This document shows, piece by piece, positions 1,759-63,659 of a DNA stretch of 64,000 nt. The position numbers were made by a program, and so were the translations under genes. Under the pieces are notes generated by a model that was not told the DNA's origin, did not search any database, and saw only the letters and a list, made by a program, of their open reading frames with translations. Within the stretch, counting starts at the first letter, position 1. Every line of letters starts with the position of its first letter. This stretch comes from Escherichia coli (GTDB lineage: Bacteria > Pseudomonadota > Gammaproteobacteria > Enterobacterales > Enterobacteriaceae). The stretch lies in the NCBI RefSeq assembly GCF_044647545.1, contig NZ_CP172818.1; one strand, given 5' to 3'.

Positions 1759-3297
1759 TCAGAACAGCCCCAACGGTTTATCCGAGTAGCTCACCAGCAG
1801 GCACTTGGTTTGCTGGTAATGCTCAAGCATCATCTTATGGGTTTCGCGTCCGATGCCCGACTGTTTGTAGCCGCCAAACGCCGCATGTGCCGGGTAAGCG
1901 TGATAACAGTTGGTCCACACGCGCCCGGCCTGAATGCCGCGCCCCATCTTATAGGCCAGATTACCGTTGCGGCTCCAGACACCCGCGCCCAGGCCATATT
2001 GCGTGTCGTTCGCCAGCTCCAGCGCCTCGTCCATCGTTTTGAAGGTGGTTACCGCCAGCACCGGACCAAAAATCTCCTCCTGGAACACGCGCATATTATT
2101 CTGACCAAACAAAATCGTCGGTTCGAGGTAGTAACCGTCTTTCAGTTCGCCTTCCAGCAGCTTGCGCCGCCCGCCGGTGAGCACGTCTGCGCCCTCTTTT
2201 TTACCAATATCAATGTAGTTGAGGATGGTTTCCAGTTGCCCGTGAGAAACCTGCGCCCCCATTTGCGTCACGCTGTCGAGCGGGTTACCGCTGCGAATGC
2301 TTTCGACACGGCGGATGGCGCGTTCCATAAAGCGTTCGTAGATAGACTCCTGCACTAAAGCACGGCTTGGACAGGTGCAAACTTCGCCCTGGTTAAAGGC
2401 AAACAGTGCAAAGCCTTCCAGCGCTTTATCGAAAAAGGCATCTTCTTCATCCATCACATCAGCAAAGAAGATATTTGGGGATTTGCCGCCCAGCTCCAGC
2501 GTCACCGGAATAATGTTTTGCGTGGCGTACTGCATAATTTGTTGGCCCACTTCCGTTGAGCCGGTAAACGCCACTTTGGCGATGCGTTTCGAGGTCGCCA
2601 GATATTCGCCAATTTCTCCGCCCGCACCGTTGACCACGTTCACCACGCCCGGCGGCAGTAAATCACCGACGATTTCCATTAGCAGCAGTACTGAGAGCGG
2701 GGTAAGACGTGCGGGTTTCAGCACCACACAGTTGCCCGCCGCCAGCGCGGGAGCCATTTTCCAGCTCGCCATCAGCAGCGGGAAGTTCCACGGAATAATC
2801 TGCCCCACCACGCCTAACGGTTCGTGGAAGTGATAAGCCACAGTTTCGCTATCCACTTCACTAATACCGCCTTCCTGCGCCCGAATACACGAGGCAAAAT
2901 AGCGAAAATGGTCAATCGCCAGCGGCACATCAGCAGCACTGGTTTCGCGAATGGGTTTGCCGTTATCCCAGGTTTCAGCGGTCGCTAACAGTTCGAGGTT
3001 CTGCTCCATCCGATCGGCAATCTTAAACAGAATCGCCGCGCGATCCTGCACCGAAGTATGCGCCCATTTATCTTTCACTTTGTGCGCAGCATCCAGCGCC
3101 AGATCGATGTCTCGTTTGCCCGAAGACGCCACTTCGCACAGCAGCTGTCCGGTCACCGGCGTCAGGTTCTGGTAATACTCGCCGTCGGCAGGGGCTACCC
3201 ATTCGCCGCCAATAAAGTTGTCGTAGCGGGCTTTTAACTTGAGGGGGAAACCATACTCGCCGGGCTTAATCTGTGCTGAAGGGGGATTATTGGTCAT
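1759..3297 (-). CDS. aldB: NADP-dependent aldehyde dehydrogenase B
   Basis: 512-aa product beginning [17 protein letters not shown] with aldehyde dehydrogenase motifs (ELGGKSP, catalytic Cys region). The ORF track extends to 3435 but the ATG at 3297 gives the conserved length. Confidence 0.95.
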
Positions 3298-3461
3298 GAT
3301 CGTCTCCTTGCGGTGTGAGGTATAACAAGGGTAGACGTGACTGGCGAAATCTTCGCCAGTCGATAACAGCTTTACGACGGCTATCACGAATTTACGGGCA
3401 AGGGTTACAGAGATAGTTGAAAAAGCGGCTGACAACTCGCCAGCCGTTGCGGGAATGATGA

Positions 3462-4613
3462 TTACATTGCGGCGCGATAAATCGCCACAATTTCTTCGTG
3501 AGTTGCCTGGATCGGGTTAGTAAAGCCACAGGCATCTTTCAGGGCATTAGTCGCCAGTACCGCGAAATCTTCTTCTTTCACGTTCAGGTCACGCAGGCCT
3601 GCCGGGATATCCACTTTCTTCGCCAGTTCACGGATGGCGTTAATGCAGGCTTCAGCACCTTCCGCGTCGTTTTTACCAGTCACGTTCACGCCCATTGCAG
3701 CGGCACAGTCACGCAGACGTGCTGCAGCGACTTTGCTATTGAATACCTGAACGTGTGGCAGCAGAACAGCATTACATACACCGTGTGGCAGGTTGTAGAA
3801 ACCGCCCAGCTGGTGCGCCATCGCATGAACATAACCCAGAGAAGCATTATTGAACGCCATACCGGCGAGGAACTGGGCATAAGCCATTGCTTCACGCGCT
3901 TTAGCATTGCTGCCATCTTCAACGGCTAACGGCAGATTTTCGGCAATCATGGTCACCGCTTTCAGTGCGCAAGCGTCAGTGATCGGCGTGGCGGCAATAG
4001 AAACATACGCTTCGATAGCGTGCGTTAAGGCATCCATACCCGTTGCGGCGGTCAGTGACTTCGGCATACCGATCATCAGAGAGGAGTCATTGACAGAAAG
4101 CAACGGAGTTACATGTTTATCAACAATCGCCATTTTGATATGACGCGCTTCGTCAGTGATGATGCAGAAACGGGTCATTTCAGAGGCCGTACCCGCCGTG
4201 GTATTGATGGCGATCATCGGCAGCTGCGGTTTTGCAGAGCGGTCAACGCCTTCGTAATCGCGAATATCGCCGCCATTGGCTGCCACCAGCGCAATACCTT
4301 TTGCGCAGTCGTGCGGAGAACCACCGCCTAAGGAGATCACGCTATCGCAATTATTTTCTTTAAGTAATTTCAAACCTGCGGCGACGTTTTCCGTGGTGGG
4401 GTTAGGTTGGGTGCCATCATAAATAACGCTAAAAATATTGCGTTCTTCCAGTGCTTTTTGCACATCACCCGCCATACCCAATTTCGTTAACATATTGTCG
4501 GTGACAATTAAGGTACGGGTAAATCCATAATCTGCCATCATATTCATTGCATCATTCAATGAATCAGCACCAATAACATTCACGGAAGGAATAAAAAAGG
4601 TTGAAGCTGCCAT
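3462..4613 (-). CDS. yiaY: Iron-containing (group III) alcohol dehydrogenase
   Basis: 383-aa ORF ([19 protein letters not shown]...) with the GGGSPHD NAD-binding motif typical of Fe-ADH; position next to aldB as in K-12. Confidence 0.9.
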
Positions 4614-8970: not shown

Positions 8971-11900
8971 ATGAGCGGAAAACCGGCGGCGCGTCAGGGC
9001 GACATGACGCAGTATGGCGGTAGCATTGTCCAGGGTTCAGCCGGGGTACGTATTGGTGCCCCCACCGGCGTGGCCTGTTCGGTGTGCCCCGGCGGAGTAA
9101 CGTCCGGCCATCCGGTCAATCCGCTGCTCGGTGCAAAGGTCCTTCCCGGCGAGACAGACATCGCCCTGCCCGGCCCGCTGCCGTTCATTCTCTCCCGCAC
9201 CTACAGCAGTTACCGGACAAAAACGCCCGCGCCGGTGGGGAGCCTCGGCCCCGGCTGGAAAATGCCTGCGGATATCCGCTTACAGCTGCGCGATAACACA
9301 CTGATACTCAGTGATAACGGCGGCAGAAGCCTGTATTTTGAGCACCTGTTTCCCGGTGAGGACGGTTACAGCCGCAGCGAGTCACTCTGGCTGGTGCGCG
9401 GCGGCGTGGCGAAACTGGATGAAGGTCACCGGCTGGCCGCACTCTGGCAGGCGCTGCCGGAAGAGCTTCGCCTGAGTCCGCATCGTTATCTGGCGACGAA
9501 CAGTCCACAGGGGCCGTGGTGGGTACTCGGCTGGTGTGAGCGGGTGCCGGAGGCGGATGAGGTGCTGCCTGCGCCGCTGCCGCCGTACCGGGTACTGACC
9601 GGGCTGGTGGACCGCTTCGGGCGCACACAGACGTTCCACCGTGAGGCTGGCGGCGAATTCAGCGGCGAAATCACCGGCGTGACGGATGGCGCAGGCCGTC
9701 ACTTCCGGCTGGTACTGACCACGCAGGCGCTGCGGGCAGAAGAGGCCCGGCAGAAGGCCATTTCCGGCGGGACGGAACCGTCCGCTTTTCCTGATACCCT
9801 GCCGGACTACACGGAATATGGCCGGGACAACGGTATCCGTCTGTCTGCCGTGTGGCTGACACACGACCCTGAATACCCGGAGAATTTACCTGCCGCGCCG
9901 CTGGTGCGCTATGGCTGGACGCCACGCGGCGAACTGGCGGTGGTGTATGACCGCAGCAATACACAGGTGCGCAGCTTTACTTACGATGATAAATACCGGG
10001 GCCGGATGGTGGCGCACCGTCACACGGGCCGGCCGGAAATCCGTTACCGTTACGACAGTGACGGGCGGGTGACAGAACAGCTAAACCCGGCAGGCTTAAG
10101 CTACACGTATCAGTATGAGAAAGACCGCATCACCATCACCGACAGCCTGGACCGCCGTGAAGTCCTGCATACCGCAGGCGAAGGCGGCCTGAAGCGGGTG
10201 GTGAAAAAGGAACACGCGGACGGCAGCGTCACGCAGAGTCAGTTTGACGCGGTGGGCAGGCTTAAGACACAGACGGATGCCGCAGGCCGGACAACAGAAT
10301 ACAGCCCGGATGTGGTGACGGGCCTCATCACGCGCATCACCACGCCGGATGGCAGGGCATCGGCGTTTTACTATAACCACCACAGCCAGTTAACGTCAGC
10401 CACCGGGCCTGACGGGCTGGAAATACGCCGGGAATATGATGAATCCGGCCGTCTGATTCAGGAAACCGCCCCTGACGGCGATATCACCCGCTACCGTTAT
10501 GATAATCCACACAGTGACTTCCCCTGCGCAACGGAAGATGCCACCGGCAGCCGGAAAACCATGACGTGGAGCCGTTACGGTCAGTTGCTGAGCTTCACCG
10601 ACTGTTCCGGCTACCAGACCCGTTATGACCATGACCGCTTCGGGCAGATGACGGCGGTGCACCGCGAGGAAGGCCTGAGCCAGTGCCGCGCATACGACAG
10701 CCGTGGACAGTTAATTGCCGTGAAAGACACGCAGGGCCATGAAACGCGGTATGAATACAACATCGCCGGTGACCTGACCGCCGTCATTGCCCCGGACGGC
10801 AGCAGAAACGGGACACAGTACGATGCGTGGGGAAAGGCCATCCGTACCACGCAGGGCGGGCTGACCCGCAGTATGGAATACGATGCTGCAGGACGGGTCA
10901 TCCGCCTGACAAACGAAAACGGCAGCCACACCACCTTCCGTTACGATGTACTCGACCGGCTGATACAGGAAACCGGCTTTGACGGCCGCACACAGCGTTA
11001 CCACCACGACCTGACCGGCAAACTTATCCGCAGCGAGGATGAGGGGCTGGTCACCCACTGGCACTATGACGAAGCAGACCGCATCACGCAGCGAACGGTG
11101 AATGGTGAAACCGCAGAACAGTGGCGGTACGACGAACGCGGCTGGCTGACACAAATCAGCCATCTCAGCGAAGGGCACCGGGTGACGGTGCATTACGGGT
11201 ATGATGAGAAAGGCCGCCTGACCGGTGAGCGCCAGACGGTGCATCATCCGCAGACGGAAGCACTGCTCTGGCAGCATGAGACCAGACATGCGTACAACGC
11301 GCAGGGGCTGGCGAACCGCTGTATACCGGACAACCTGCCCGCCGTGGAATGGCTGACTTATGGCAGTGGTTACCTGGCAGGGATGAAACTCGGCGACACA
11401 CCGCTGGTGGAGTACACCCGCGACCGCCTGCACCGGGAAACGCTGCGCAGCTTCGGCCGTTATGAACTCACCACCGCTTATACCCCTGCCGGGCAGTTAC
11501 AGAGCCAGCACCTGAACAGCCTGCAGTATGACCGCGATTACACCTGGAACGACAACGGCGAACTCATTCGCATCAGCAGCCCGCGCCAGACCCGGAGTTA
11601 CAGCTACAGCGACTCCGGCAGGCTGACCGGCGTTCACACCACCGCAGCGAACCTGGATATCCGCATCCCGTATGCCACGGACCCGGCAGGTAACCGCCTG
11701 CCCGACCCGGAGCTGCACCCGGACAGCACCCTCAGCATGTGGCCGGATAACCGTATCGCCCGTGACGCGCACTATCTTTACCGGTATGACCGTCACGGCA
11801 GGCTGACGGAGAAAACCGACCTCATCCCGGAAGGGGTTATCCGCACGGATGATGAGCGGACTCACCGGTACCATTACGACAGCCGGCACCGGCTGGTGCA

Positions 11901-12750
11901 CTACACGCGGACACAATATGCAGAGCCGCTGGTCGAAAGTCGCTATCTTTACGACCCGCTGGGCCGCAGGGTGGCAAAACGGGTGTGGCGGCGTGAACGG
12001 GACCTGACGGGCTGGATGTCGCTGTCACGGAAACCGGAAGTGACCTGGTACGGCTGGGACGGCGACCGCCTGACCACGATACAGAACGACAGAACCCGCA
12101 TCCAGACGGTTTATCAGCCGGGGAGCTTCACACCACTCATCAGGGTCGAAACCGCCACCGGTGAGCAGGCGAAAACGCAGCGCCGCAGCCTGGCGGATGC
12201 GCTTCAGCAGTCCGGCGGCGAAGACGGTGGCAGTGTGGTGTTCCCGCCGGTGCTGGTGCAGATGCTCGACCGGCTGGAAAGTGAAATCCTTACTGACCGG
12301 GTGAGTGAGGAAAGCCGCCGCTGGCTGGCATCGTGCGGCCTGACGGTGGCGCAGATGCAAAACCAGATGGACCCGGTGTACACGCCGGCGCGAAAAATCC
12401 ACCTGTACCACTGCGACCATCGCGGCCTGCCGCTGGCGCTTGTCAGCACGGAAGGGGCAACAGAATGGTGCGCAGAATACGATGAGTGGGGCAACCTGCT
12501 GAATGAAGAGAACCCGCACCAGCTGCAACAGCTTATCCGCCTGCCGGGTCAGCAGTATGATGAGGAGTCCGGCCTGTATTACAACCGCCACCGCTATTAT
12601 GACCCGCTGCAGGGGCGGTATATCACTCAGGATCCGATTGGGCTGAAGGGGGGATGGAATTTTTATCAGTATCCGTTGAATCCGATATCAGACATCGAGC
12701 CCCCTGGGTTTATCTATGTGGGAGGATGCAAAATCGGGGGCATGTACTAA
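8971..12750 (+). CDS. rhsA: Rhs-family core protein (RhsA-type) with N-terminal PAAR-like region and YD repeats; very short atypical C-terminal tip
   Basis: 1259-aa ORF starting [26 protein letters not shown]; many YD/RHS repeats (RYRYDxxGR); conserved core end ...[29 protein letters not shown], followed by only [21 protein letters not shown] before the stop. GC-rich, unlike the AT-rich DNA downstream. Confidence 0.9.
12241..12686 (+). repeat. 3' end of rhs core; copy A of a dispersed direct repeat (copies at 14626-15069 and 17213-17298)
   Basis: About 450 bp nearly identical to 14626-15069; the last 80 bp or so also recur at 17213-17298. Boundaries are approximate. Confidence 0.8.
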
Positions 12751-40762: not shown

Positions 40763-40971
40763 TGCGATTCTCCAGACAGGGCAAATTCCAGCACATATTA
40801 CCCAAACTTATAGGTCGCGACGAGATGACGCGTTAACACTTCTGCAAAATTCAGGATAAATCCAGCCCCCTCACTTTTGGTGAATGGCTGAAGCCAACGT
40901 CATGTAGTGATATGATAAGAAGTATTCGTGTCTGAGATTGTCTCTGACTCCATAATTCGAAGGTTACAGCT

Positions 40972-62070: not shown

Positions 62071-62108
62071 TATGACGTCCGGCATGATTATTCATCCAGC
62101 GAATATTT

Positions 62109-62750
62109 TTAAACGCCAAACTCTTCGCGATAGGCCTTAACCGCCGCCAGATGTTCCGCCATTTCCGGCTTCTCTTCCAGGTAAGCAATCAGGTCTTTCA
62201 GGGTGATGATAGAGATCACTTTGCAGTTGTAATCACGCTCAACTTCCTGAATTGCCGAAATCTCGCCGCGCCCCCGTTCCTGACGATCGAGCGAAATCAA
62301 TACGCCAGCAAGCGTCGCGCCATTGGCCTGAATAATTTCCATCGACTCGCGGATCGCCGTTCCGGCGGTGATCACATCATCCACCAGCATTACGCGTCCT
62401 TGTAACGCGCTACCGACCAGATTGCCACCTTCACCATGGTCTTTTGCTTCTTTGCGGTTAAAGCAGTACGGCAGGTCCAGGTCATGATGCTCCGCCAGCG
62501 CCACGGCAGTTGTGGTGGCAATCGGGATCCCTTTGTAAGCAGGGCCAAACAGCAGATCGAACTCAATGCCGGAATCCACCAATGCTTCAGCGTAAAAACG
62601 GCCTAACAGTGCCAGATCGCGCCCGGTATTAAACAGCCCGGCGTTGAAGAAATAGGGGCTTTTGCGCCCGGACTTCAACGTAAACTCGCCAAACTTTAAC
62701 ACCTGCTTGCTAAGCGCAAATTCAATAAACTGGCGCTGATATGGTTTCAT
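62109..62750 (-). CDS. pyrE: Orotate phosphoribosyltransferase
   Basis: 213-aa product ([38 protein letters not shown]...). Confidence 0.95.
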
Positions 62751-62815
62751 GCCTTCGCTCCTCATCTTACTTTTCTACAGACAAAAAAAAGGCGACTCAT
62801 CAGTCGCCTTAAAAA

Positions 62816-63532
62816 TCAGTTTGCCAGCGCCGCCTTCTGCGTCGCTACAATGGATTCGATTCCCCCTCGGGCCAGCGCCAACAAGGTGAGTAATTCTTCG
62901 TGGGTGAACGGTTCGCCTTCTGCCGTCCCCTGCACTTCAATGATGCGCCCGTCTTCGGTCATCACTACGTTCATGTCGGTCTCTGCGGCTGAGTCTTCAA
63001 CGTATTCCAGATCGCAAACCGCTTCGCCGTTGACAATGCCGACAGAAACTGCGGCTACCATCCCTTTCATCGGGTTGGTTTTCAGCTTGCCGTTTTCCAC
63101 CAGCTTCTGTAGCGCATCTGCCAGCGCCACGCAGGCACCCGTAATCGACGCGGTACGCGTGCCACCATCAGCCTGAAGCACGTCGCAGTCCAGCGTAATG
63201 GTGAACTCACCCAGCGCTTTCAAATCTACTGCCGCACGAAGAGCACGGGCGATCAGACGCTGGATTTCCATGGTGCGTCCACCCTGCTTACCTTTCGCCG
63301 CTTCACGCGCGTTACGGGTGTGGGTAGAACGTGGCAGCATGCCGTACTCTGCGGTGATCCAGCCCTGGCCCTGACCTTTCAGGAAGCGCGGCACGCCTTC
63401 TTCAATAGAGGCGGTACACAATACTATGGTATCGCCAAATTCGACCAGCACCGAGCCTTCTGCATGTTTTGTATAGTTACGAGTCAGGGTAACGGGACGC
63501 ACCTGATTATTGCTACGGCCTGCTGGACGCAT
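62816..63532 (-). CDS. rph: Ribonuclease PH, apparently full-length
   Basis: 238-aa product ([35 protein letters not shown]...ATQKAALAN) with no internal frameshift. Confidence 0.95.
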
Positions 63533-63659
63533 ATTGAAATCTCCGGCTTGAAACAAATGTGGCTGCGCATTATACGGACTTCCGGCGGTTATTCCTATCC
63601 TGACAAGGCATCGATGGCTATAATCCTTCCACCTCTCCTTTTATAAACAGGAACGTCTA

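Follow-up and report, generated by a model that had tools for sequence, protein, structure and literature searches.

RNase PH, the product of rph, is a phosphorolytic 3'-5' exoribonuclease that trims the precursors of tRNA and other stable RNAs. Much has been published on the rph-1 lesion, an oddity of the MG1655/W3110/EMG2 branch of Escherichia coli K-12. The window (the whole 64,000-nt stretch of E. coli DNA analysed here) carries a copy of rph, and the question is whether this copy is of the rph-1 type or encodes the full-length enzyme and, in the latter case, what the intact frame says about the origin of the sequence and about the control of the downstream gene pyrE. A full-length frame could have several causes: the window could come from a non-K-12 strain with an ordinary wild-type rph-pyrE operon, it could come from a K-12 derivative in which the lesion has been repaired, or the base that keeps the frame open could be an error of sequencing or assembly.

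The rph reading frame and its product

An uninterrupted open reading frame on the minus strand, running from 63532 to 62816, corresponds to rph (62816..63532, 717 nt: 238 codons and a TGA stop). The frame is listed as 62816..63556, and the annotated ATG of rph is at 63532. The encoded RNase PH consists of 238 amino acids and ends with ...ATQKAALAN; when compared with the frame listing and the translation, the coordinates, length and C-terminus reported for it in the first-pass annotation proved exact.

The protein scores 377.2 bits against TIGR01966, the NCBIfam equivalog of RNase PH (cut-off 141.5), and its residues 2-236 cover profile positions 1-235 of 236, that is, the profile from end to end, whereas the rph product of MG1655 covers positions 1-221 only. 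The two-domain architecture is present, with PF01138 (RNase_PH) at residues 10-140 (105.4 bits) followed by PF03725 (RNase_PH_C) at residues 157-222 (58.3 bits). Over its whole length the protein is also alignable to the solved structures from Pseudomonas aeruginosa (1r6l, E = 4.8e-103), Bacillus subtilis (1oyp, E = 4e-82) and Mycobacterium tuberculosis (3b4t, E = 1.2e-79), with all of which it shares the phosphate-binding segment GGTRTA. As read from the translation, it retains R86, G124, T125 and R126, which we take to form the phosphate site, with the numbering and role as published for the B. subtilis and P. aeruginosa structures; the segments around these residues, ...GGR86TMEIQ... and ...ADGG124T125R126TASITG..., are the same as in the aligned 1r6l. 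Since the TIGR01966 match, both Pfam domains and the alignments to the PDB structures all point the same way, these sequence comparisons leave no doubt that the rph frame is a genuine gene and did not arise by chance.

Comparison with the rph-1 allele

To locate the lesion, the rph gene and the spacer downstream of it were aligned with the MG1655 reference (NC_000913.3, 3813000-3819000). Over this region the two sequences differ in length only by a single homopolymer base: the plus-strand sequence is GATTCCCCCTCGGG in the window and GATT-CCCCTCGGG in MG1655. The coding strand of the window has five consecutive G there (62862..62866, minus strand; CCCCC on the plus strand), at the Gly-Gly codons 223-224, where rph-1 of MG1655 has four G and hence a frameshift. 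Thus, the 1-bp deletion which the first-pass annotation had ascribed to the 3' end of MG1655 rph is seen as a gap in MG1655 and none in the window, and the alignment of the rph 3' end and the spacer, which would have exposed a deletion shared by both sequences, revealed no such deletion in the window.

For the MG1655 gene b3643 (687 nt, 228 aa) the annotation reads 'truncated RNase PH', and the gene product has an altered tail, ...ARGESNPL, after which a TAG stop follows. By translation of the MG1655 coding sequence, this premature stop falls at 62845..62847 (minus strand) of the window, where the TAG is out of frame. It is situated 29 nt upstream of the natural TGA; because one base of the G5 run is lost, the rph-1 frame ends that much earlier. 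When the missing G was put back into MG1655 rph in silico, a 238-aa protein was obtained, from which the RNase PH of the window differs by K36I, V138A and I216T. The window shows neither hallmark of the rph-1 allele, a G5 run shortened by one G·C pair and a 228-aa product.

Frequency of the intact allele and origin of the window

To estimate how common both alleles are, we used as a query the MG1655 61-mer centred on the deletion, for which identity of at least 99% over 61 nt amounts to an exact match. Of the 5,355 complete E. coli genomes with a match, 167 had an exact one. Among the exact matches listed are K-12 strains of the laboratory (MG1655 and J53, for instance), and the other listed matches that cover the whole query are all 62 nt long, with one extra base. 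By this count, about 97% of complete E. coli genomes have an intact rph, and hence its presence in the window is unremarkable. The full-length rph is the E. coli norm and the broken copy of MG1655 is the exception, as was already known; the intact gene is the ancestral and near-universal state of the species. Since full length is the default, the intact frame tells only that the sequence does not come from a K-12 strain of the MG1655/W3110 type. As a marker of provenance it has this one use, that is, to set the window apart from laboratory strains like MG1655.

If the window came from an MG1655 or W3110 derivative in which rph-1 had been repaired by reversion or engineering, the frame would be intact as well. 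Repaired strains are known, a true rph-1 reversion having been built in PMC5933015. Several features of the window would suit such a derivative: the rph-pyrE spacer and the rph-yicC intergenic region do not differ from MG1655, and the LPS core genes are K-12-type according to the annotation of the best-matching genome. More generally, rph-1 of MG1655, W3110 and EMG2 is the same gene at the same position, with the same spacer, attenuator and upstream intergenic region as in the window. However, the coding sequences do not have a K-12 background. There are 16 substitutions between rph of the window and that of MG1655, with three amino-acid changes relative to K-12 (the K36I, V138A and I216T mentioned above), and 16 more in pyrE, all synonymous; over the 3,001 nt compared with MG1655, 56 mismatches were observed, which corresponds to 98.0% identity, and elsewhere in the window identity to the best E. 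coli matches is 96-99%. The flanking 60 kb, too, fall short of the identity to MG1655 (more than 99.99%) that would speak for a repaired derivative.

The rph allele itself is of the ST648 type. For an 801-nt query covering rph, the best matches (99.9%) were found in ST648 and similar strains, and 716 of the 717 nt of the gene are identical to rph of ST648 (NZ_CP008697.1), the one difference being A->T at 63426 in the window, which yields K36I. The rph+ allele of ST648 and of BS-04 (NZ_CP172819.1) encodes WP_001247093.1, which has 238 aa as in the window, and the operon layout and the spacer are also the same. The substitution density relative to MG1655 rules out a repaired K-12 derivative, the probability of which we consider practically nil. 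Thus, of the two explanations that had been offered for the full-length frame, an origin outside the MG1655 and W3110 lineages stands, while a repaired derivative does not, given the number of substitutions and the ST648-type rph.

The third alternative is that the fifth G is a homopolymer error of sequencing or assembly, the true sequence being frameshifted. Indel errors in long-read assemblies are indeed most frequent in homopolymer runs, but five G are present in all non-K-12 alleles examined (ST648, BS-04 and three independent metagenome/Logan contigs), each of these rph alleles being 717 nt long and in frame, and in most complete genomes the region is 62 nt long versus the 61 nt of the rph-1 query. 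The background of the window is non-K-12, and no natural carrier of the deletion was seen outside K-12. We consider such an error extremely improbable. The window almost certainly carries a wild-type rph-pyrE operon of the ordinary kind, from a non-K-12 E. coli.

The rph-pyrE spacer, the attenuator and pyrE

The natural rph stop TGA (62816..62818, minus strand), identified from the sequence and the terminator scan, is followed by an intercistronic spacer of 65 nt (62751..62815, minus strand) that matches MG1655 exactly (65/65). The spacer contains the pyrE attenuator hairpin, AAGGCGACU-GAUG-AGUCGCCUU, at 62789..62810 (minus strand), with nine pairs, five of them G-C; it was detected by the terminator scan and recurs in both the minimum-free-energy and the centroid folds of the region. 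A U tract follows the stem at 62783..62788 (minus strand), so that there are eight consecutive U if the last two stem bases are counted. An intrinsic terminator, consisting of a hairpin and a U tract, is hence located between rph and pyrE, directly after the rph stop. The distance from the natural TGA to the base of the attenuator stem is only 5 nt; for a ribosome ending at the rph-1 TAG the distance to the stem is 34 nt. The fold of the whole 136-nt region is not more stable than that of shuffled sequence (z = -1.13), and within this fold the terminator hairpin alone is meaningful.

Downstream of the spacer lies pyrE (62109..62750, minus strand), which encodes orotate phosphoribosyltransferase of 213 aa (TIGR00336, 240.6 bits). 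With all its 16 nucleotide differences, the gene encodes the same PyrE protein as in MG1655, with no amino-acid differences.

On the other side of rph, the divergent rph-yicC intergenic region (63533..63659, 127 nt), which presumably contains the rph promoter, also matches MG1655 exactly. A promoter consensus scan of this region found no promoter-like site; this negative result says little, since MG1655 has exactly the same sequence there. Both intergenic regions are therefore identical to MG1655 over their entire length (65/65 and 127/127), with the flanking coding sequences carrying 16 substitutions each. At the level of sequence, this complete identity would fit a strong constraint on the regions of the attenuator and the promoter.

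Expected control of pyrE

Jensen 1993 is said to have described rph-1 as polar on pyrE, and this paper and Bonekamp et al. 1984 are reportedly the ones that deal with the pyrE attenuator. Both are cited in passages of PMC9997739 and PMC5933015. According to PMC9997739, the frameshift that MG1655, W3110 and EMG2 carry in rph leads to a truncated RNase PH and lowers the expression of pyrE, and pyrimidine starvation follows from it; PMC5933015 describes rph-pyrE as the commonest adaptive target of MG1655 in M9 glucose minimal medium. The polarity of rph-1 on pyrE, as it had been noted for this locus, is thus established knowledge, with which the geometry of the spacer, the stops and the hairpin agrees.

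As the rph frame of the window is intact, ribosomes would translate it up to the natural TGA, 5 nt before the attenuator hairpin. In the published model, which the geometry fits, RNA polymerase slows when UTP is low, and the ribosome at the 3' end of rph closes in on it; this ribosome would then cover the 5' arm of the hairpin, so that termination would be suppressed and transcription would proceed into pyrE. In MG1655 and W3110, where a G is lost from the G5 run, ribosomes would stop 29 nt earlier, too far away to affect the hairpin. In rph-1 strains termination would then be constitutively high, whatever the level of UTP, pyrE would be under-expressed, and the cells would be partly starved for pyrimidines.

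Since the spacer is identical to the experimentally studied region of K-12, UTP-sensitive control by coupled translation should be intact in the window strain. We infer both this coupling and the normal expression of pyrE in the strain from the published work on the K-12 operon. The source strain is predicted to be free of the partial pyrimidine starvation that MG1655 experiences in minimal medium.

The K36I variant of RNase PH

A full-length frame is not the same as the standard protein, because the copy in the window carries the rare substitution K36I. Codon 36 (63425..63427, minus strand) is ATA (Ile), and in other E. coli it is AAA (Lys), the changed base being 63426. Over 717 nt, this A->T change alone separates the gene from the ST648 allele, and hence K36I is the only change from WP_001247093.1, the commonest RNase PH protein of E. 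coli. The exact protein of the window is WP_400165090.1 [Escherichia coli], which is recorded on very few contigs, and it was also found in three metagenome/Logan contigs. The T base is observed on at least three synonymous rph backgrounds in independent samples (the window, with the contig L003, which is essentially identical to it, L002 and L004). Among about 5,420 complete E. coli genomes, no exact match was found for 61-mers around K36I on two local backgrounds, and an exact 51-mer spanning the substitution had no match in a set with one genome per GTDB species.

In the solved structures 1r6l, 1oyp and 3b4t, the residue that aligns with Ile36 of the window protein is in each case Lys, so that this Lys was suspected to be invariant. 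To survey the position, 1.84 billion cluster representatives (a 50%-identity library) were searched and the best 150 were aligned. The position turned out to be variable: Arg is present in 54 of these representatives, Lys in 36, His in 25, Gln in 11, Ile in six, Glu in four and Val in three. A basic residue (R, K or H) thus occupies it in 115 of the 150, and the nearby residues G33, T35 and V37 hardly vary.

There are, hence, two ways to read the substitution. If K36I impairs the enzyme, the strain would be functionally rph-deficient; its pyrE control would still be normal, because translation would reach the natural rph stop as before. In favour of such an impairment, this is the sole change from the commonest protein, it is absent from the complete genomes searched, and the protein that carries it is seldom recorded; Lys is kept in the enzymes of P. 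aeruginosa, B. subtilis and M. tuberculosis, and the position is surrounded by nearly invariant residues and is mostly basic. On the other hand, the presence of Ile in six of the 150 representatives means that Ile is naturally tolerated here, and together with Val in three, and with Gln and Glu, it argues that a basic residue is not essential; the occurrence on at least three synonymous backgrounds in independent samples indicates that the variant persists in nature. To our knowledge, residue 36 of RNase PH has no catalytic or phosphate-binding role. We regard an impaired enzyme as unlikely, and K36I is probably tolerated, the evidence favouring a benign rare polymorphism.

The recurrence of K36I could also mean that the substitution alters the function and has been selected repeatedly for a changed RNase PH activity in some niche. 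We find this more doubtful still than impairment: the recurrence could equally reflect separate mutations, neutral or mildly deleterious, that come to light only through the heavy sampling of E. coli. We do not read selection into it, as sampling of this depth would yield the same pattern for many single-base changes. As far as the analysis shows, K36I is the sole undescribed element of the rph locus, and it is a minor curiosity.

Neighbouring features and mosaic structure of the window

The intergenic site between slmA and pyrE is empty in the window (62072-62096, 25 bp). In the contig L003, a 1,289-bp insert (2273-3561) is situated between pyrE and slmA and encodes a reverse transcriptase (438 bits vs PADLOC RT_Ec107-like); in ST648, a gene of a retron-type reverse transcriptase is annotated downstream of pyrE (locus L006, 1-552). 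The 1,289-bp segment of L003 is absent from the window. Herzer et al. 1992 reportedly found that the retron Ec107 replaces a short palindromic spacer between pyrE and ttk; a literature search on Ec107, pyrE and retron retrieved no paper.

The relationship of the window to complete genomes varies along its length. Positions 1-62000 are unusually far from all 5,426 complete E. coli genomes: for 1-25000 the best matches are about 96% identical at 88% coverage, and for 40000-62000 the identity is 99.0%, the best relatives there being BS-04 and HS-01, which have K-12-type core LPS genes and small genomes of about 4.5 Mb. Beginning at 62097, identity to ST648-type strains is 99.9%. Such a pattern suggests that the window is a recombinational mosaic whose lineage lacks a close complete genome in the collection.

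The interval between kbl and rfaD is 62 bp long (40862-40923) versus 1,288 bp in BS-04, where it contains yibB (htrL), a gene absent from the window. An IS1 element of 769 bp is located at 326-1094, in or just after yiaW and upstream of aldB; where its flanks match strain w264, the two matches share 9 bp, which fits the 9-bp target duplication that IS1 typically makes. Finally, an Rhs-element frame at 8971-12750 (1,259 aa) is about 96% identical to rhsB of strain w264 (a 4,236-nt coding sequence, about 1,411 aa) and then diverges from it, and the Rhs tip fragments downstream are rearranged in the window; the Rhs differences at 8971-12750 are probably ordinary Rhs variability.
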